A DNA stretch of 52,257 nt, taken from the NCBI GenBank assembly GCA_944351395.1, contig CALVPP010000003.1:1-52257 (forward strand), written 5' to 3'. The notes beneath the pieces are model-generated. The model was not told where the DNA came from and ran no database searches. It worked only from the letters and a program-made list of their open reading frames with translations. Shown piece by piece: positions 5,411 through 39,191 of the stretch (positions are counted from its first letter, which is position 1; the number at the start of each line of letters is the position of its first letter). Both the position numbers and the translations under genes were made by a program. Source of the DNA: an uncultured Bacilli bacterium (GTDB taxonomy: Bacteria; Bacillota_I; Bacilli_A; RFN20; CAG-826).

Positions 5411-6075
5411 ATTTCTTTTTCCTCCACTTCGAAATCATCTGGGTAAAAATCTTCATGCGTTACCGAACCGAAAATAGGCTTATCGTCTTCAAAAAGTTCA
5501 ACATCTTGAAAACAATATATTTTATGTCCCCAATCGTCCACTATTACATCATTAAATATTTTTTTCACTTCTTCATCTAATGTGAAAGTAACATATATCT
5601 CTATTTGACCAACGCGCAAAGATCTTAAACCCTTTAAACATACTTTTTCTATTTTCTTTAAAAGGCCAACTTCATTAAATGCGTCATAGATGTATTTTCC
5701 TTCGCTAAGAAGATAATTTGTACAATCTTCAATAATCGTCGGGAATTCATCATAAAGTTTATAAATTCTTGAGACTATATCTTTTTCAATTACTTCACTA
5801 TTTTCTATGAATGCACTCTCATCTAAATATTTCGCGTACAATTTCTTACCTTTGGTATTGATATAGTGAGTGATGTGATCAATATACTGTCTAAAAGACA
5901 AGTTCTTTTTTAAAAGGTGCTTATATTCTTTTTCTAACTGCTTACGCAAAGCCACTTTCGCTTTTGCAAATTCATTATATGGAGCGAAATCTAATAAATA
6001 GGTGTTAGATAAACTATTATGTAATTTAATCTTATTCGCCGTCGGTCTTTTTTCAAAAATTTCCTTATAAAGCAT
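5404..6075 (-). CDS. Hypothetical protein
   Basis: 223-aa ORF with an extended -10 immediately upstream; no recognised family; C-terminal FQDVELF...FGSVTHE segment. Confidence 0.7.
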   Translation of the reverse strand: MLYKEIFEKRPTANKIKLHNSLSNTYLLDFAPYNEFAKAKVALRKQLEKEYKHLLKKNLSFRQYIDHITHYINTKGKKLYAKYLDESAFIENSEVIEKDIVSRIYKLYDEFPTIIEDCTNYLLSEGKYIYDAFNEVGLLKKIEKVCLKGLRSLRVGQIEIYVTFTLDEEVKKIFNDVIVDDWGHKIYCFQDVELFEDDKPIFGSVTHEDFYPDDFEVEEKEIW

Positions 6076-6081
6076 GAGTTT

Positions 6082-6090
6082 ATTTTAACA
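6082..6090 (-). promoter_or_regulatory. Extended -10 promoter, probable leaderless transcript
   Basis: TGtTAAAAT 6 nt upstream of the ATG at 6075; no SD. Confidence 0.6.
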
Positions 6091-6275
6091 CTTCTTACAA
6101 TAAAAGAAAAAAACGTGAGTACTCTTATAATTAAGTTGCCTATTCGCATAACGACATTAATATAGCCTTAAAGCAAGCGAAACGAAAATGATATAGATTT
6201 TAAACTTTAAGATTCTAAAATTTCTTGGTGCATTAAGAATTTAATATAATTACAAAAAATCTTTCTTTTATAAAT

Positions 6276-6296
6276 AAAAAACGGGAATTTTTCCCG
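6276..6296 (-). terminator. Intrinsic terminator downstream of tRNA-Arg and the small hairpin
   Basis: CGGGAA-aaa-TTCCCG followed by TTTTTT on the minus strand. Confidence 0.75.
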
Positions 6297-6477: not shown

Positions 6478-6488
6478 GACTAAGCAAT

Positions 6489-6516
6489 ATTATAGATAAA
6501 TTCACATAAATTTCAA
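6489..6516 (-). promoter_or_regulatory. Sigma-A promoter of tRNA-Arg
   Basis: TTGAAA-16 nt-TATAAT. Confidence 0.65.
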
Positions 6517-6666
6517 TAAAACTTTGCGTAGCCATTTAGTTAGTAAATAACTAGGTGTTAGAAGTATCTTTAACTTTTGATTGAAAATAAATTAGTTACG
6601 CAAAAGCATATATAATTTAGTGATATTTTTTTCTAAAAATGTGCATTACTTAAGAACAATTATAAG

Positions 6667-6687
6667 AAAAGCCGTCATTTGACGGCT
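6667..6687 (-). terminator. Intrinsic terminator of the OB-fold lipoprotein gene
   Basis: Inverted repeat AGCCGTCA/TGACGGCT with a T tract on the minus strand. Confidence 0.8.
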
Positions 6688-6712
6688 CTATCTATGATTT
6701 ATTCAAATTAAA

Positions 6713-8938
6713 TTAGTAAGAGAACGCTTGATCGTTATAGATGATTGTACCATCTGTTAGCTCTACATAAATGATGCAAAGTTTATAGAATGTTTTTTCA
6801 TTCCAATTGCATGGTGCAACTGCATAAGTTAACGTTTGCCCACTATAATCTTTTAACCAATTGTATTGATTTGCGCTAGAAGTATAAAGTTCACCTTTAC
6901 CGCTTTCGTCTTCAAGATGACATGAGGTATAGTAAATATGATCTTCCCAAATAAATTGGCCTTCTATGACGTAAACTTCATTGGTGTGGTCTTCGCTGAC
7001 GTCTAATGAACGGATGTAAGCAAAATCTTTATCTAAAATGTAGAAATCAGTTGGTATTTCGTTATCGCCGAATAGATTTAATAATATTTCTCCACTGCTA
7101 ATCGCACATTGTCCTGCGATATTAGATTTTGCACCTTCTTGTATTCTTGTACCTCTTAAAATGACTTCGTCACCAGCTTTAACAGTGTTCATGCTTTCAC
7201 TAGGTACTAAGACTGCGATGATGGCGTGTTCATCTGTCAAATAGAAACCAACTTGGTTGACAAGAGCGCTTAATACGATGCCTCGTACTGTTACTTCACT
7301 ATTCAATTCGCTATCGATCGCTTCGCTTACAGTAATAGTGTCATACATTGGCTCATCATTTACGATGATTTTGTATGTTCTTTCATCTCTGTACGTGGAA
7401 TAATTTACAGTCGCGGTCACGATTACTTCCCCAGTAATTGTGTTATTGACATGCATATAAGTTTTGTCTTCCACAGTGCTAAAATAGAGAGATTCTTCAT
7501 TAGATGATGTATAAGCAATAGTAGCGTTTTCAAAACCTAATAAATCATTACTAACTGAAGTTAAGACTTCCATATTTGGATCACTATAATAATAGTTGAC
7601 CTCAAATTGTTCATCGACATAGTAATCTAAGACCATAGTTGGTGTATTTGAGATATCAAACTGATAATTATTGTCACTCACCTTGACTGGCAAGAATCTA
7701 GATGTCAAACCGCTTTGTTCACTCTTGTAATTTAAGACGGTAATATATACTTCGCAAATTTTGCCATCAAATTCTTTTAGCCAAGAGAAATCTCTGCCGC
7801 TAGCTTGAGAGTATGCATAACTTCCGGTCGTTCCATCAATATCGAAAAAATAGAAGTTCGTAAAATTACTTCCTGGTCTTTCCTCAATAAGAGCGTTTAC
7901 CTTATAAAGTGAAGTCGTGAAGTTAAATTCACTTATATCGTGTTTGACCAAATCTTTGATAGTCGATTCAATAACCCAGGTCGTATCAAATTCGTGATTA
8001 CCATTGTCATTGCTAATGATCGTTGCATCCACGACTTGAACGCAACCATCATAACCATAAAGTTCCGCGTTGTTTTGCTCAGTATCTAAAATCCAATTGT
8101 CTCTCTTTGCAGCAATTTGAATTAGATTCCCAACTTCTACTTGCGGAGCAATTTGATTATCATAAACGTAAATTGAATTTGTTTCATCCACTAAAATAAA
8201 TCCAACAGGATTTAACGCGTCATTATAAGTAAACCTTGCCACGACGCCATCGATTTTGACGAGCGCACCTTCGCTAGCGTTTCTCGCTTCTAAGATAGAC
8301 ATCTCTTCATAATCATCTACGCTAATGTCAGGGCTGTTATGTGTGAAAGAAATAATCCAACCAGAATAGATTTGAGGTGTACCTTTATATGTGTTGATGT
8401 TTCCATAGAGCAAAACATCATCGCCTGCGACTGGTTTTTCTTCTAAATCGCTATAACGAATTTCACCTGTCGAATCATAAGTACCATACACTGCAATTTC
8501 CCCAGTCGCATCACTTATTACCATTTCGCCATAGGTTGGATTAGAGACCGTCTCTATTTTTCCTTCGACATAGTATCTTTCTTGAGACGCGCCATTTGGA
8601 TAATTAGCAGCAAGAGCGATTAACTCATTGATAAAATAATATCGCCATTTCGCGTGTATCGTCATATTAGCGTCGATTATTTCACTAAAATCAAAGGCGA
8701 TAGTAAGATTAGCGTCTTCGTACCATCCATCAAAGACATAACCTGCTTTGGTTGGATCGATAGGTTCGCTAATCGTGTTCCCTTCTTCAACAGTTACGCT
8801 ATCGACCGCAGAACCACCATTAGAATTAAAAGTAACGGTATAGATTTCTGGTTCATCTGCAGGGTCGCCGCAACTGGAAGAAAAAAATAACGTGCCTAAA
8901 GTTACGACACACGCAAGAAAAAAAGGAACTTTTTTCAT
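6713..8938 (-). CDS. Acidic surface lipoprotein with an InlB B-repeat (Listeria-Bacteroides repeat) and several OB-fold-like repeats
   Basis: Signal peptide with lipobox-like FSSSC; YTVTFNSNGGS...PTKAGYVFDGWY...IHAKW repeat; recurring (V/Y)xVxGxV...GFxLxD...IxV...V(E/K)xGxx(V/I) units; RBS GGAGG. Confidence 0.8.
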   Translation of the reverse strand: MKKVPFFLACVVTLGTLFFSSSCGDPADEPEIYTVTFNSNGGSAVDSVTVEEGNTISEPIDPTKAGYVFDGWYEDANLTIAFDFSEIIDANMTIHAKWRYYFINELIALAANYPNGASQERYYVEGKIETVSNPTYGEMVISDATGEIAVYGTYDSTGEIRYSDLEEKPVAGDDVLLYGNINTYKGTPQIYSGWIISFTHNSPDISVDDYEEMSILEARNASEGALVKIDGVVARFTYNDALNPVGFILVDETNSIYVYDNQIAPQVEVGNLIQIAAKRDNWILDTEQNNAELYGYDGCVQVVDATIISNDNGNHEFDTTWVIESTIKDLVKHDISEFNFTTSLYKVNALIEERPGSNFTNFYFFDIDGTTGSYAYSQASGRDFSWLKEFDGKICEVYITVLNYKSEQSGLTSRFLPVKVSDNNYQFDISNTPTMVLDYYVDEQFEVNYYYSDPNMEVLTSVSNDLLGFENATIAYTSSNEESLYFSTVEDKTYMHVNNTITGEVIVTATVNYSTYRDERTYKIIVNDEPMYDTITVSEAIDSELNSEVTVRGIVLSALVNQVGFYLTDEHAIIAVLVPSESMNTVKAGDEVILRGTRIQEGAKSNIAGQCAISSGEILLNLFGDNEIPTDFYILDKDFAYIRSLDVSEDHTNEVYVIEGQFIWEDHIYYTSCHLEDESGKGELYTSSANQYNWLKDYSGQTLTYAVAPCNWNEKTFYKLCIIYVELTDGTIIYNDQAFSY

Positions 8939-32749: not shown

Positions 32750-34642
32750 TCATTTAATTTTTTTGAAGATACACGCACCAAAAGAAGCGAGCTTAATTGT
32801 CATCTTATGTGGTTTACCTTCTGGACCAAATTCGCTCGAAGTAACTGGTAGGCCATTATACTGGTTATAGCCACCATATACGTCTTTATCCGAATTGAAT
32901 ATTTCTTCATAGACACCTTCTTCCATGAGAGGAATATCGTAATATTCATAATATACTGGCGTCATATTGAAGACGAAGACGAGCAATGAATCACCGACTT
33001 TCCTTTGGAAAGCAAAAACGCTTTGGTCGTGATTATCGACCATGAGCCATTGAAAATGGAAAGGATTATATTCCTCGAAATGCATCGCTGATTCATAACG
33101 ATAGATGAGATTTAAATCTCTCACTAAACGAACTACGGAATCATGTTTTGGGAAAGTTCTAAGATTCCAAGGTAGAGATTTGTTCTCATTCCATTCATCA
33201 AAACTGGCAAGTTCATTACCCATGAAATTCAATTTCTTACCTGGATGAGCGAATTGATATGTGTAAAGATTACGTAATTGGGCAAACTTATCGTCATAAT
33301 TGCCATAAATCTTATTGATGATCGTTCCTTTGCCGTGTACGACTTCGTCGTGACTTAAAGGCAAAAGGAAATTATCACTGTAGAAATAAGCCATGGAAAA
33401 AGTGAGCGTATTGTGCTCATACTTACGATAAATCGGATCTTTTGAATAATACTTTAACGTATCGTTCATCCAACCTAAATCCCACTTGTAATCGAAACCT
33501 AGACCACCAGACCAAGTCGATTTCGTGACATTAGGGAAATCAGTACTATCTTCTGCAATCATCATGACACTATCGTGACGGTCGTGAATGCGGCCATTAA
33601 GTCTCTTTAAAAATTCGATAGCTTCTTCATTGCGTCCTAAACCTTTATTTCCTTGGTAATACACCATATTCGAAACAGCATCGATTCTAATGCCATCGAA
33701 ATGAAAAACTTCGAGGAAATAATTCATTGCAGACATGAGGAAGGAGCGAACCGGATCTTTACCTAAATTAAATTGACAAGAACCCCATTGTGAATAGCGT
33801 CTATCATCGCTATATTCGAAAAGACAAGTGCCATCATATTCTGCTAATGCCCAACTATCAGTAGCGAAATGAACGGGAGCGAAATCTAAGATGACACCAA
33901 TGTTTGCTTGATGGAGTCTATCGATGAAGGACATGAGTTGCATCGGATTGCCATAACGTGAATCTGCTGAATAAAAGCCAGTGCCTTGATAACCCCAACT
34001 ACCCTCAAATGGATATTGAGTGACAGGCATGATTTCAATATGGGTGTATCCTAAATCACGTAGATAAGGGATTAAATCATCAGCAATTTCTTCATAAGAT
34101 CTATAACGACCATCCACTTTACCATTCCATGAACCAAGATGCATCTCATAAATTGACATCGGAGCATCAAAACAGCGTGAACGATTCTTTAACCAAGCAT
34201 CGTCATGCCAAATGAAATTGCGGTAATCGAACAAGCGCGAACATGTGCCTGGACGTAATTCGCTAAAGAAAGCGAATGGGTCAGCTTTATCGACATATTG
34301 TCCGTGTGCATTCTTAAAATGGAATTTGTAGGATTGATAATTTTCTAAACGTGGAATAAATACTTCCCAAACGCCACTATCGTCGATACGATTCATTTTA
34401 TGAATAGTTGGGTCCCAATTATTCCATTCGCCGATGACGCTCACATCGCTTGCCATTGGAGCGTATAATCTGAAGATGACACCTTTTAAAACTGCATCTT
34501 TTTTAATCGTACGCGGTCGGCCATTTTTTTGTTGGATGACGTGAACTTCAGTTACAGCGCGTTCTTCGAAATGAGCTCCAAAATAATGGTATGCATCAAT
34601 CGTTTGTCCCATGAGGAAATCATAAAGTAATCCATATGCCAT
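32750..34642 (-). CDS. glgB: 1,4-alpha-glucan branching enzyme
   Basis: IYEMHLGSW, SWGYQ, DGIRIDAV, IAEDST, KWDLGWMND, LSHDEVVHGK, HPGKKLNFMG. Confidence 0.97.
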   Translation of the reverse strand: MAYGLLYDFLMGQTIDAYHYFGAHFEERAVTEVHVIQQKNGRPRTIKKDAVLKGVIFRLYAPMASDVSVIGEWNNWDPTIHKMNRIDDSGVWEVFIPRLENYQSYKFHFKNAHGQYVDKADPFAFFSELRPGTCSRLFDYRNFIWHDDAWLKNRSRCFDAPMSIYEMHLGSWNGKVDGRYRSYEEIADDLIPYLRDLGYTHIEIMPVTQYPFEGSWGYQGTGFYSADSRYGNPMQLMSFIDRLHQANIGVILDFAPVHFATDSWALAEYDGTCLFEYSDDRRYSQWGSCQFNLGKDPVRSFLMSAMNYFLEVFHFDGIRIDAVSNMVYYQGNKGLGRNEEAIEFLKRLNGRIHDRHDSVMMIAEDSTDFPNVTKSTWSGGLGFDYKWDLGWMNDTLKYYSKDPIYRKYEHNTLTFSMAYFYSDNFLLPLSHDEVVHGKGTIINKIYGNYDDKFAQLRNLYTYQFAHPGKKLNFMGNELASFDEWNENKSLPWNLRTFPKHDSVVRLVRDLNLIYRYESAMHFEEYNPFHFQWLMVDNHDQSVFAFQRKVGDSLLVFVFNMTPVYYEYYDIPLMEEGVYEEIFNSDKDVYGGYNQYNGLPVTSSEFGPEGKPHKMTIKLASFGACIFKKIK

Positions 34643-34774
34643 AAATGTAAATCCTTCTTTTTAATGTAGCCTGTGTGCATACATCCACGTTGCATTTTAT
34701 CATTTATTAAATGCTATGTCATTGCAAAATTTATATCTTATTTAAAAATATTAAATAGATTACGTTTTTCTTAA

Positions 34775-35560
34775 CTAATAGGAGTGATAGCCATTTAAAT
34801 CTAAAGTTACTTTCTCAAAGTTCAATTCTTTTAAATTTCGCAATAAATCTTCATCTTGTACAATCTTTGAAAAATATTTTTTTAGAGTTTCAATTCTTAA
34901 AGTTCCATCTTCACACCTAGCACGAACGAAGCAAATTCCTGCCTCTTTTAATAATCGTTCCGCTTCTGCAACTTTCTTCATTTGGTTAACATCAAGTTTA
35001 GTTCCATAAGGAAACCGCGTCGCAAGACATGTATTCGATGGTTTGTCATATTGTGTAATTCCTACATTTTTAGCTAATTCAATTATTTCTTTTTTGCGAA
35101 AACCTAGTTCCATGAGAGGGCTTAAAATGTCAAGTTCCTTGACTGCTCGCATGCCTGGTCTATTTTGGCTTAAAGAATCGTCGTAGTTTTGACCATCTAA
35201 AACATATGGAATTTGGTTTAATTTGGCTCTAACTACTATTCTATTCATCATCATTCTTTTACATTTATAACAACGGTTTTTGCTATTAGTAGATATTTCT
35301 TCGTCATCCAATGGATTAAAGGTCACGACATCATAATTGATTTTATTATTTTTTAAATAAGAAATTGCTTCTTCAAATTCGTAAGGATCGAATAAAACAC
35401 TATGAGCGATGATAGCTAAAACATTATCACTACCTAAAACTTCTTCTGCTCTATTCAATAAAAATAGAGAATCAATACCTCCAGAATACGCAATAGCGAC
35501 TTTTCCTAGTTTAGACAAATAATTGTCTAGTATGGCCAATTTATCTTTTTTTACTTGCAT
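34775..35560 (-). CDS. larE: NPN cofactor sulfur transferase LarE (tri-Cys type)
   Basis: PP-loop AYSGGIDS, RCYKCK, RPGMRA, SPL, TCLATRFPYG, VTLDLNGY; start re-assigned to ATG 35560, overlapping the larB stop. Confidence 0.93.
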   Translation of the reverse strand: MQVKKDKLAILDNYLSKLGKVAIAYSGGIDSLFLLNRAEEVLGSDNVLAIIAHSVLFDPYEFEEAISYLKNNKINYDVVTFNPLDDEEISTNSKNRCYKCKRMMMNRIVVRAKLNQIPYVLDGQNYDDSLSQNRPGMRAVKELDILSPLMELGFRKKEIIELAKNVGITQYDKPSNTCLATRFPYGTKLDVNQMKKVAEAERLLKEAGICFVRARCEDGTLRIETLKKYFSKIVQDEDLLRNLKELNFEKVTLDLNGYHSY

Positions 35561-36294
35561 GCGAGTGTGTTTATTTGATGAGCGACATAACCCGCTCCAA
35601 AGCCATTGTCTATATTGACGCATGTAACGCCATTTGAGCAAGAATTTAACATAGTCAACAAAGCACTTAATCCTTCAAAATTACTACCATAACCAACTGA
35701 TGTAGGACAAGCGATGACAGGCACTTTTACTAAACCTGCTACTACGCTTGCCAAAGCACCTTCCATACCAGCGACGCATATGATAACGTTCGCTTTCTTA
35801 AGTGTTTCTTCAAAAGCGAGAAGACGATGAATGCCACTAACACCAACATCATATATTTTTTCTACAAATGAACCTAAAAAAGTAGCAGTTTCATACGCTT
35901 CATCCGCTACTTTAATATCAGCAGTACCAGCGCTCATGACGATGATGTGTCCTTTTAATTCCTTCTTTTTTGCTACTTTTAAAATGCGGGAAGTCTCATC
36001 ATATGTAGCAGATGGAATAACTTCTTTTACTTTTTGGAATTGTAGTTCATTTGCTCTCGTCCCCAAAACCTCGCCGTTCTGTTCATAAAGGTATGAAAAA
36101 ATTTTCTTAACTTTATCAGCGTCTTTATTTTCACAATAGACAATTTCATTTGCTCCAGTCCTGTTTTTTCTATCATCGTCAATTTTAGCAAAACCCATAT
36201 CGAAAAAGTTTATCGACTTAATGCACGTTATAGCGTCTATAAGGCTTAATTTACCATTTTTATATTCGTTTAAAATATCTTCAATCTTCTTCAT
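35551..36294 (-). CDS. larB: NPN cofactor biosynthesis carboxylase/hydrolase LarB
   Basis: AGTAD, DVGVSGIHRL, VAGMEGALASV, PTSVGYG, LNSC, VNIDNGFGA. Confidence 0.96.
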   Translation of the reverse strand: MKKIEDILNEYKNGKLSLIDAITCIKSINFFDMGFAKIDDDRKNRTGANEIVYCENKDADKVKKIFSYLYEQNGEVLGTRANELQFQKVKEVIPSATYDETSRILKVAKKKELKGHIIVMSAGTADIKVADEAYETATFLGSFVEKIYDVGVSGIHRLLAFEETLKKANVIICVAGMEGALASVVAGLVKVPVIACPTSVGYGSNFEGLSALLTMLNSCSNGVTCVNIDNGFGAGYVAHQINTLACK

Positions 36295-37447
36295 AATCTT
36301 TCACCAAATCATATAAGTCTTTTAAGGGTATGTTCTTTTCATCCGACACTTTCTTTAATGACTCAAATTCAGTATAAATTTTATCACCTTTTGGATGATG
36401 AACTTTCTTAAAAAGTAACGGTCCGTATTTTGTTTGGATACTAACTATTTCTCTAGGCAAAATATTGCGATGTTTCACAGTATATCTAATTCCGATTGCA
36501 GTCGTTTGAGTAAAGATGATATCACACATTTTTTCTAAATCTTTTAATTGGGCGATAACGGAGAGTTTATAAGCGGGACGATTTTTCTTCATGTATATGG
36601 GAGTGTAGAAAACATCTAACGCACCTGCTTTAAATAATTTTTCCATAGCAAAGGAAAGAATTTCACCGCTACAGTCATCGATATTCGTCTCTATTTCCAA
36701 GATGTCTTCATCTTTTTCATCTATCTCGCCATAAATTATTCTTAACATATTAGGAATAGATAAATCTTTTAATCCAGCACCATATCCTATTTCTTCAATT
36801 TTAAAAGGAAAGATGGGAATACATTTTTCTACGAGCGAAGCAAGAATTGTCGCCCCAGTAGGAGTAATTAATTCCGTATCAATATCGATGACATTAAATG
36901 CTATTTTATGATTTTTAAAAATTTCTAAAGTTGCTGGCACTGGTACCATCATCTTACCGTGTGCGCATTCTATGTATCCTTTGCCTTCATTAGGAATATT
37001 AGAATAAATGTGGTCTGGGTTAATTTTATCGATTAAAATTGCTGTTCCGACGATGTCGACAATGGAATCAATCGCTCCAACTTCATGAAAATGTACTTCT
37101 TCTAAATTTATGTTATGTACTTTGCTTTCAGCTATTGCAACATTAAGAAACATCTTTTTAGCGAGGTCTTTAACATTAGATGATAAATCGCTATCATCGA
37201 TGATTTGATAGATGTTAGAAAGATGACGATGTTCATGTGAATGATCATTTTCAGTCAAAATTACATTAACATAAGTGCCAAAAATACCATGTTTTTCCGT
37301 CTTTTCTATAGAAATCTTATATCCATTTAAATGTAATTTTCCTAATTCGTTAAGAAAATAAGCATCATCTTTAACAATTTCTAATAAAGCGGCGATAGTC
37401 ATATTTCCGCTTATACCGCTTTGACAATCAAAATATAAAATTTTCAT
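36281..37447 (-). CDS. larC: Nickel insertase LarC (full-length C1+C2)
   Basis: YFDCQSGISG, His patch HSHEHRH, VHFHEVGAIDSIVD, PVPAT, ELITPTGA, ETNIDD, MKKNRP. Confidence 0.96.
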   Translation of the reverse strand: MKILYFDCQSGISGNMTIAALLEIVKDDAYFLNELGKLHLNGYKISIEKTEKHGIFGTYVNVILTENDHSHEHRHLSNIYQIIDDSDLSSNVKDLAKKMFLNVAIAESKVHNINLEEVHFHEVGAIDSIVDIVGTAILIDKINPDHIYSNIPNEGKGYIECAHGKMMVPVPATLEIFKNHKIAFNVIDIDTELITPTGATILASLVEKCIPIFPFKIEEIGYGAGLKDLSIPNMLRIIYGEIDEKDEDILEIETNIDDCSGEILSFAMEKLFKAGALDVFYTPIYMKKNRPAYKLSVIAQLKDLEKMCDIIFTQTTAIGIRYTVKHRNILPREIVSIQTKYGPLLFKKVHHPKGDKIYTEFESLKKVSDEKNIPLKDLYDLVKDYEED

Positions 37448-37454
37448 AATTTCA

Positions 37455-37830
37455 TTAACCTATATTAATTAATTCATAATCTAAACTGCCTACTCCATAC
37501 ATTTCGGCAGTATCGATAATCAAGTGGCCTTTTTCATCTAAGATGTCAACCTTAAAATATTTTGTCCATTCGTGTTCATTCATGAGTACCCAATGTTTCT
37601 TACTATCATCTTTTGCTCCGTCATAAGCGGTATTGCACTCAACAATTGTGCCGTTAACTCGTTCCACGATATTTTTAAAAAAAAGATGGTCGTAGAAAAT
37701 TGTTATTGCCTTTTTCCCATGAATGTACCTTAACTGCGACATTACCTTTCAATGGTTTATTGAAATAATCATAAAGTTTAACTAATGTCGACTCATCGAT
37801 TTTACTACTAAAATAAACCTTGCCAGCCAC
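37455..37830 (-). pseudogene. Disrupted DUF362-family gene heading the lar operon
   Basis: RBS GGAGG plus GTG 37830 gives MAGKVYFS...GNVAVKVHSWEKGNNNFLRPSFF-stop; removing one T from the T8 run (37677-37684) joins KNIVERVNGTIVECNTAY...DILDE and a C-terminal-type GVGSLDYELINI; repaired length is only 124 aa. Confidence 0.8.
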
Positions 37831-37991
37831 GTAATAAGCCTCCAAAAAATTGAAGTTTTAACAATTTTTACTTTATATGCTTTTTTATAAAGTTGCAAAC
37901 ATTCTTTTCATAAAAATTATGCTTTGCATACCAATTTCACTCTTTTTTGTTTTATAATACTAGCGTTGATTAATTTAATAAGGAGAAAATA

Positions 37992-39191
37992 ATGTCAAAA
38001 GTCATGGCAGTTAACGCTGGTTCATCCAGTCTTAAGTACAAACTTTACGAGATGCCAGAAGAGACAGTTATCTGTTCTGGTATCGTCGAACGCATCGGTT
38101 TTGAAGATGCAATTTTTACATTGAAGAAAGGTGATACGAAAAAAAGTTACGTTACACCGATTAAAGACCACCAGGTCGCTATTAATCTTCTTCTAGAAGA
38201 GATGATAAAAATGCACGTTGTCAATCATATCGATGAAATAGTTGCTGTCGGCCATAGGGTCGTTCAAGGCGGTAAATATTTTTCGAAGACAACTGAAATT
38301 GACGATGAAGTCATTTCTATCGTCGAAAAACTTATCCCATTAGGTCCTTTACACAATCCAGCGAGTATCATTGGTATCAAAGCATTTAAAGAAGTTTTGC
38401 CTAATGTCAAAATGGCTATCACTTGTGACACTTCTTTCCATCAAACGATAGAACCCGTTGATTATCTATATCCAATCCCATACGAATTTTATGAAAAATA
38501 TGATCTTAGACGTTATGGTGCTCATGGCACATCCCACCGCTATTTGGCAGAACGTGCTAGTGCTATGCTTTCAAAAGAAAAATTAAACTTAATTACTTGC
38601 CATTTAGGTAGCGGCTCATCTATTACCGCTATTAAAGATGGGCGTTCAATCGCTACATCGATGGGTCTAACTCCTCTCGGCGGCATCATGATGGGTACTC
38701 GTTCTGGTGATATCGATCCTTCCGTCTATTATTACATTCAAAAAGTAACTGGAAAAACTAATGATGAAGTCTTTAGACTTCTCAACAAAGAAAGTGGTCT
38801 AAAAGGAGTAAGTGGCGTCTCAAGCGATTCACGCGATATTTTAAAGGCGATGGATGAGGGTGACGAAAGAGCAAAACTCACCATGGATCTATTCGCACGA
38901 CGCACATTAGATTTCATCGGACAATATTTTGTAAGATTAGGTCATGTCGATATGATCATCTTCAGTGCTGGCATCGGTGAAAATGATCCTTACATTCGCA
39001 AAGTCGTTTGCGATGCCTTAAAACCTTCACTTGGCATCGAAATTGATGATGAACTAAATACAAATGCAAGAGGTAAAGAAATAATCATTTCTAAGCCGTC
39101 TTCAAAAATTAAAGTGGCAGTCATACCGACAGATGAAGAAATTATGATTGCAAGAGATACTTACAAAATTTACCTTGGAGAAAAATTATGA
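37992..39191 (+). CDS. ackA: Acetate kinase
   Basis: NAGSSSLK, GHRVVQGG, PLHNP, RRYGAHGTSH, HLGSGSS, MGTRSGD, AGIGEN, PTDEE; RBS AGGAG. Confidence 0.98.
   Translation: MSKVMAVNAGSSSLKYKLYEMPEETVICSGIVERIGFEDAIFTLKKGDTKKSYVTPIKDHQVAINLLLEEMIKMHVVNHIDEIVAVGHRVVQGGKYFSKTTEIDDEVISIVEKLIPLGPLHNPASIIGIKAFKEVLPNVKMAITCDTSFHQTIEPVDYLYPIPYEFYEKYDLRRYGAHGTSHRYLAERASAMLSKEKLNLITCHLGSGSSITAIKDGRSIATSMGLTPLGGIMMGTRSGDIDPSVYYYIQKVTGKTNDEVFRLLNKESGLKGVSGVSSDSRDILKAMDEGDERAKLTMDLFARRTLDFIGQYFVRLGHVDMIIFSAGIGENDPYIRKVVCDALKPSLGIEIDDELNTNARGKEIIISKPSSKIKVAVIPTDEEIMIARDTYKIYLGEKL

Follow-up and report, generated by a model that had tools for sequence, protein, structure and literature searches.

Which protein uses the cofactor known as nickel-pincer nucleotide (NPN) when the genes for its biosynthesis stand behind a DUF362 gene instead of larA? 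The question is raised by a locus in a 52,257-nucleotide stretch (contig CALVPP010000003.1, positions 1 to 52,257, forward strand; hereafter the window) from an uncultured Bacilli bacterium (GCA_944351395.1), whose genome, G000, amounts to 1.05 Mb and is 99.47% complete. Four genes, DUF362-like, larC, larB and larE, follow one another on the minus strand, and a first-pass annotation had proposed that the DUF362 protein takes the place of LarA as an NPN-dependent enzyme of its own. We found that the DUF362 gene of the window is dead, its active-site core having been deleted, and that purifying selection acts on larC, larB and larE, all three of them intact. What the window holds is gene decay in a streamlined genome, with only a dead copy of DUF362, and not a working new enzyme system.

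A dead DUF362 gene ahead of intact lar genes

The DUF362-like piece consists of two open frames, 37675–37845 and 37455–37742, with a likely start at a GTG at 37830 and a GGAGG motif (37839–37843) ahead of it. Neither frame by itself matches any Pfam family, and a PF04015 (DUF362) scan of the whole genome was likewise empty. When the two frames are read through as one product of 129 residues, PF04015 is matched at 26 bits (cut-off 24, E=1.1e-5), over profile positions 1–65 of 200 only, and a DUF362 profile searched through the whole genome found matches confined to these two frames. Identity of the remnant to two intact DUF362 proteins of 289 aa amounts to 88% and 84%, and at E≤0.001 it has 1470 longer relatives, the best 120 of which are 268–302 aa long. 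Three lesions were located (Table 1). The deletion takes out the invariant His-Lys-His and Cys-Asp-Cys motifs, the lost segment holding His134-x-Lys-x-His138, Lys148, Lys160, His164 and Cys213-Asp-Cys215, which are invariant in 66 of 66 aligned family rows. The window copy thus failed a test for a complete DUF362 domain, all of these residues being gone. The expectation that a repaired open reading frame would prove to be DUF362 was borne out as far as the PF04015 score goes, but a one-base repair is insufficient, since the catalytic core is deleted.

Table 1. Positions of the cassette genes, the lesions in the DUF362 remnant and the candidate cofactor user
Feature	Position	Strand	Description
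DUF362 (PF04015) pseudogene remnant	37455-37830	minus	keeps roughly the first 100 and last 23 of ~289 residues
Frameshift run	37672-37684	minus	coding-strand T8 followed by A5; holds a +1 frameshift
In-frame deletion junction	37527|37526	minus	~169 codons lost, per alignment (columns 107-275 absent)
TGG (Trp) codon	37717-37719	minus	replaces an invariant Gly
larC	36281-37447	minus	full-length nickel insertase (cyclometallase), LarC1 and LarC2 fused; intact
larB	35551-36294	minus	nicotinic acid adenine dinucleotide (NaAD) carboxylase/hydrolase; intact
larE	34775-35560	minus	ATP-dependent sulfur transferase, [4Fe-4S]-dependent motif type; intact
AKR-Fer4	G000 contig C16, 12113-13246 (L074:1231-2364)	minus	only aldo-keto reductase (AKR) of the genome

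The three lar genes, by contrast with the DUF362 remnant, run for some 2.8 kb with no stop and no frameshift. LarC matches PF01969 at 8e-138 and the NCBIfam LarC1 and LarC2 models at 198.7 bits (cut-off 90) and 138.7 bits (cut-off 50), LarB matches NF033503 at 276.9 bits (cut-off 175), and LarE matches TIGR00268 at 251.5 bits (cut-off 150); with all equivalog scores above cut-off and all frames intact, the genome passes as capable of NPN biosynthesis. We placed the larE start at the ATG at 35560 because orthologues begin at the matching position. The LarE translation carries both an SGGXDS P-loop and a CXXC-C motif, which goes with a [4Fe-4S]-dependent, non-sacrificial mechanism according to the available part of PMC9283937, and nadD and cysteine-desulfurase-like genes are present elsewhere in the genome. 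The tight packing described at first pass is confirmed by the coordinates: the DUF362 stop at 37455–37457 and the larC start at 37447 leave a 7-nt gap, and larC/larB and larB/larE overlap by 14 and 10 nt. Likewise larA was not found at any place in the genome, with no Lar_N (PF09861) match at E≤10 and no match of a full-length LarA profile at E≤1 across 7187 six-frame pieces. A genome-wide search for CbiM, NicO and the ornithine cyclodeaminase family gave no match either, which upholds the reported absence of a nickel transporter as far as CbiM and NicO are concerned; larD and larR, also reported as missing, were never searched for.

The stretch was also found in chicken and bird gut metagenomes, and we compared contigs of four runs from four studies (X3, X4, X6 and X9) over 36900–38300; of 141 strain differences 40 are displayed, the list for X4 being complete and the figures for X6 and X9 partial. 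The X4 contig covers this region from end to end, interrupted by no more than three gaps of one base and with no insert at the deletion junction, and the deletion is therefore common to X4. At this junction X6 carries an additional stretch of about 488 bases and represents an intact allele, and in X9 a further 133 bases (37481–37613) are skipped. In all three contigs a base is missing at 37677, so that the frame is kept, and position 37719 reads C, making the codon GGG (Gly) and not Trp. The frameshift and the Trp codon are therefore private to the strain of the window, or else the frameshift arose in the assembly; the X3 contig (depth 3.6) is longer by one base.

X4 differs from the window at 19 sites. 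The 376-nt remnant accounts for 15 of them, with 6, 5 and 4 on codon positions 3, 2 and 1; three lie beyond it and a single one, at a third codon position, falls in 548 nt of larC. Among the larC substitutions displayed for any run, nine of nine affect third codon positions (binomial p=5e-5), including seven of seven in X9 despite its larger loss of DUF362. Expressed per base, 4% of the remnant (37455–37830) and 0.2% of the adjoining larC (36900–37447) differ from X4, a gap that exceeds neutral decay alone, so that recombination between alleles is possible. These strains form a natural experiment, in which one species carries intact, truncated and further-deleted DUF362 genes beside constrained lar genes.

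A second loss was found within the genus. Among 41 genomes of the order, LarC occurs only in the genus of the window, in four genomes (G000, G051, G052 and G053), and intact DUF362 occurs in G051 and G052 as well as in the LarC-negative G059, G081 and G087. G053 retains a 31-codon DUF362 stub ahead of intact larCBE. By amino acid identity G053 groups with G051 and G052 at 82–90%, with G000 at 41–68%; as it sits with the two DUF362-intact genomes and apart from G000, the two losses are independent. The ratio of non-synonymous to synonymous substitution rates (dN/dS) of the lar genes among G051, G052 and G053 is 0.06–0.18, and the G053 branch shows no rise in dN for larC or larB, although for larE its dN of 0.062 exceeds those of the other two branches (0.044 and 0.053). 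Comparisons of G000 with the other members were saturated (dS 1.3–2.3), and dN/dS was not used for them. The proposal that DUF362 is the client of the cofactor finds no support in this genus, in which the gene was lost twice while larCBE was kept intact and constrained. With the DUF362 remnant decayed and larCBE working, another protein would then have to use the cofactor in this bacterium.

The cassette is flanked, as first described, by glgB and glgP on one side, and by ackA, with nrnA, on the other. The same four-gene order was seen in three differing chromosomal contexts, namely the window, G051–G053 and G002. No Rfam family was found within 34500–38100 at E≤1, and a scan for promoters and terminators detected no terminator and 13 promoter-like sites, where 17.2 were expected.

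LarA likeness and genomic linkage of DUF362

Although the window copy is dead, the intact members of its family bear on what it may once have done. The kinship with the LarA N-terminal domain, which had been put forward at first pass, is real: PF04015 and DUF2088 belong to one Pfam clan, CL0471, and DUF362 has served as an outgroup, according to the available text of PMC11770544. We modelled an intact homologue, P0002, with AlphaFold2 (pLDDT 95.7, pTM 0.93). All 18 Foldseek matches of this model at E≤0.001 were LarA-family structures, with E values down to 2e-6, and VIA-align gave Z scores of 13.1–15.2 for five LarA-family chains over 199–226 residues, the next best score being 4.9. Intact DUF362 proteins, as represented by the model of P0002 and not by the remnant, are thus predicted to have the LarA fold, and the structural comparison suggested at first pass returned LarA-family matches only.

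At the sequence level the likeness is fainter. With a profile of 32 DUF362 members, LarA-like PDB chains were matched at the Lys-His motif, but weakly (E=0.026 and 0.11), and hhalign of DUF362 against seven LarA homologues, the numbering of one of which is offset by 5 from that of 5HUQ, gave a weak alignment of 96 columns (probability 13%, E=0.002). In this weak alignment His138, Lys148 and His164 of DUF362, residues which are also invariant in the absence of lar genes, pair with His174, Lys184 and His200 of LarA, and His108 of LarA has no DUF362 partner; in LarA, Lys184 and His200 bind NPN and His108 and His174 are catalytic, roles described in the available parts of PMC7583248 and PMC12611868. 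The NPN-binding Lys and His that had been anticipated thus have putative counterparts, of Lys184 and His200, in intact homologues, and both are gone from the window copy. We also noted a DUF362-like protein of 382 aa (G343:C32:8495-9604) with a sub-threshold Lar_N match of 22.1 bits over profile positions 143–194, at the Lys-His motif, and this protein may stand midway between DUF362 and Lar_N.

The linkage of DUF362 to lar genes was surveyed at 64 loci with DUF362 orthologues. Lar genes lie in the same operon at five of them (L001–L003, L021 and L054) and 6 kb away at L028. Altogether DUF362 was found in lar operons of Acholeplasmatales genomes, L021, L054, G011 and G216; in G011 a second DUF362 copy, cut by the contig end, precedes a permease gene and larBCE, and the lar cluster of G216 has a fragmented DUF362 at a distance of 2.6 kb. 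The latter locus (L178, G216:C2, 3976–12898) comprises DUF362 fragments, a shikimate-dehydrogenase-like gene, larE, a DUF3842 gene, CbiM-CbiQ-ABC ATPase genes, larB, and larC in two frames. On the tree the lar-adjacent DUF362 rows need at least three changes, and none of 200 bootstrap trees allows a single one. Lar_N was missing from all five other genomes with the cassette, so that LarA was not found in any of the six, and it was not found in eight of 14 other genomes positive for both LarC and DUF362.

Co-occurrence was counted in 299 genomes of one phylum with completeness ≥90%, in which related genomes are not independent. LarC is present in 11 and DUF362 in 41 of these; DUF362 occurs in eight of the 11 LarC-positive genomes, with remnants in two more (G000 and G053), and in 33 of the 288 LarC-negative ones, an enrichment with a Fisher p of 8e-6 and a within-family permutation p of 0.005. 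The literature on DUF362 and the nickel pincer yielded only the outgroup use and no link between DUF362 and lar genes, and the DUF362 literature, judging by titles and the beginnings of abstracts, gives no function. The Protein Atlas held DUF362 clusters only and nothing usable beyond those.

Two other lar loci deserve mention. In an Atopobiaceae genome (L163, G017:C8, ~6481–8305) one open frame of 785 aa has both LarB-like and LarC-like matches and is a possible larB-larC fusion. The Muribaculaceae lar cluster at L021 has only the LarC1 part (5560–6291, 243 aa), LarC2 not being found in that genome at E≤1e-5, and carries a CbiM-type transporter gene between larC and larE.

Candidate users of the cofactor

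In this genome the best candidate for the present NPN user is AKR-Fer4, an intact aldo-keto reductase (PF00248, 8e-41) with a C-terminal domain containing two 4Fe-4S motifs. AKRs are proven NPN enzymes: NphT tethers an NPN-type cofactor through Lys200 with His144, and AKRs accompany lar genes 427 times, as reported in the available part of PMC13524815, the main text of which is silent on DUF362 and 4Fe-4S. The G000 protein is 37% identical to the product of the gene that opens the lar cluster at L021 and 47% identical to that of a G333 gene which overlaps a larC copy by 8 nt; this copy (L182, G333:C72, 5848–7963) is a second, shorter larC-like gene of 333 aa, matching query residues 1–311, and the overlap is with the start of AKR-Fer4. 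His158 and Lys215 of the G000 protein are spaced similarly to His144 and Lys200 of NphT, a comparison of spacing only, without alignment, since NphT (9YEB) was absent among the PDB sequence matches of two AKR queries.

Orthologues of AKR-Fer4 are intact in G052 and G053, so that the genus comprises a genome with DUF362 only (G051), one with both proteins (G052) and two with AKR-Fer4 only (G053 and G000), all four having larCBE. That each lar-positive member keeps at least one of the two proteins fits two alternative users of the cofactor, albeit in four genomes. In the phylum sample AKR-Fer4 is present in ten of 11 LarC-positive and 61 of 288 LarC-negative genomes, and it is the strongest co-occurrence partner of DUF362, being found in 35 of 41 DUF362-positive against 36 of 258 DUF362-negative genomes (p=8e-20; intersections counted by hand from tables). 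G081 and G333 carry the two genes side by side, with a MerR gene upstream, and in G059, L041 and L021 they are near each other. A complex prediction for the G333 AKR-Fer4 with the neighbouring DUF362 protein scored 0.00, which is no evidence either way. The G333 locus (L181, G333:C110, 3907–6259) is a minus-strand MerR-DUF362-AKR-Fer4 operon in a genome that is LarC-positive and in which LarA was not found, and MerR-type regulators are the commonest neighbours of DUF362, at about six of 64 loci.

We tentatively favour, with somewhat less than even confidence, the reading that DUF362 is one optional user or binder of NPN in genomes that carry lar genes, not the sole one, and that it has been lost here. 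DUF362 would then have become dispensable in this lineage, in which it is repeatedly being lost. LarB would carboxylate and cleave NaAD, the [4Fe-4S]-type LarE would add two sulfurs and LarC would insert nickel, and the resulting NPN would be used by another protein, most likely the AKR-Fer4 on contig C16; the pathway would have been kept because of this other user.

The independent losses of DUF362 in G000 and G053, with larCBE left intact and constrained, fit this reading. A number of observations weigh against it. The phylum sample contains only 11 LarC-positive genomes, with kinship among genomes, and 33 of its 41 DUF362 genomes, as well as 32 of 50 in another count, are without LarC; LarB was found in none of five tested LarC-negative DUF362 genomes. 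The subfamily profile detected DUF362 near none of 80 diverse, unrelated metagenome LarC loci, and the 110 nearest neighbours of 79 lar-holding LarC loci included two AKRs but neither DUF362 nor Lar_N. Across the 66 aligned rows, 35 of which come from LarC-negative genomes, the His-Lys-His triad never varies, and it is therefore no marker of NPN use; nor did the 66-row alignment contain any residue unique to the lar-adjacent rows. As for AKR-Fer4, it was not found in G051, where PF00248 had no match at all, it is carried by 61 LarC-negative genomes too, its His does not vary between genomes with and without lar genes, and in place of the candidate Lys the lar-positive G052 and G053 have Arg. 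The DUF362 family as a whole works without NPN. Of the first-pass proposal of an NPN client, the fold, the weakly aligned triad and the linkage in intact relatives survive, but the family occurs mostly without larBCE and the triad does not mark NPN use; the neighbourhood survey similarly placed DUF362 in lar operons of several LarA-less lineages, with enrichment alongside LarC, but left most DUF362 genomes without LarC and the 80 unrelated loci without DUF362.

The same facts lend themselves to another explanation, which we regard as a serious possibility, if likelier wrong than right: DUF362 never used NPN but belongs, with AKR-Fer4, to a separate and often MerR-linked module in which His-Lys-His and the cysteines serve another metal or cofactor, its position beside larCBE reflecting co-transfer or shared regulation, and NPN serves AKR-Fer4 or some other protein. 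This would account for the 27 LarC-less genomes among the 35 that hold both DUF362 and AKR-Fer4, for the close spacing of the two genes at the five loci named above, for the prominence of MerR among neighbours and the MerR-DUF362-AKR-Fer4 operon of G333, for a triad that is invariant in the absence of lar genes, and for lar genes that stayed constrained after DUF362 was lost. It sits less well with the co-directional, tightly packed arrangement of DUF362 with lar genes at no fewer than three places on the tree where LarA was not found, with the recurrence of one four-gene order in three chromosomal contexts and with the within-family enrichment. Nor does it readily explain G051, which has larCBE and DUF362 and in which neither an AKR nor LarA was found, or why the fold and triad should be those of the only family known to tether NPN via Lys and His.

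A bolder reading, and one we consider rather unlikely, is that DUF362 proteins of about 290 aa would form a compact LarA-fold nickel-pincer class with flexible cofactor use, binding NPN through Lys148 and His164 where larBCE is present, with AKR-Fer4 as a redox partner and perhaps itself an NPN user, and that the cassette moves as a unit. Finally, that DUF362 was the sole NPN enzyme of the cassette, as first proposed, and that larCBE are now orphans too recent to have decayed is improbable: the LarA fold, the triad, the position at the head of the operon, the six cassette genomes in which LarA was not found, the joint decay that could be read from the fragmented DUF362 and split larC of G216, and the 88% identity of the remnant to an intact protein, which may mean a recent loss, are outweighed by the 15 changes without codon bias in 376 nt of remnant against one third-position change in 548 nt of larC, by the third-position changes of larC in X9, which lost more of DUF362, by the freedom of the lar genes from stops and frameshifts, and by the independent loss in G053 with low dN/dS, no extra dN in larC or larB and slightly more in larE.

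Comparison with known systems

According to the available text of PMC11796402, the nickel-pincer cofactor is made without LarA in about 15% of the genomes analysed there. The present data tie DUF362 and lar genes alike to a fusion of AKR and ferredoxin that is uncharacterised, and DUF362 itself is a testable third non-LarA candidate, a structural cousin of LarA. To our knowledge only two non-LarA users are in print, the AKR NphT and ornithine cyclodeaminase; the latter was reportedly described as such by Desguin in 2025.

In Lactiplantibacillus plantarum the lar operon is larA-larB-larC-larD-larE, with larR and nickel transporter genes. Equivalogs of larB, larC and larE likewise lie here in one translationally coupled operon, but larA, CbiM and NicO were not found in the genome, larD and larR never having been searched for. 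Moreover, larC is a single frame here and not larC1/larC2, and LarE is of the CXXC-C [4Fe-4S] type and not of the sacrificial single-Cys type.

When compared with the LarA superfamily (Lar_N/DUF2088, e.g. PDB 5HUQ), DUF362 shares the clan, the predicted fold and, in a weak alignment, the triad, and it likewise heads lar operons, in genomes in which larA was not found. However, DUF362 proteins have about 289 aa and LarA about 424, they have no Lar_N profile match and no counterpart of His108, and they have an additional invariant Cys-Asp-Cys motif. Most members, furthermore, occur in genomes without larBCE, and both the cofactor and the activity of DUF362 are putative.

Another parallel is the NPMN-dependent AKR NphT (PDB 9YEB), a non-LarA gene beside larBCE in larA-less genomes, as described in the available part of PMC13524815. 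The leading candidate client here is also of the AKR family, and at L021 and in G333 lar genes have AKR-Fer4 genes among or next to them; whereas NphT, with about 290 aa, is an AKR and nothing more, AKR-Fer4 adds to this framework its C-terminal domain with two 4Fe-4S motifs.

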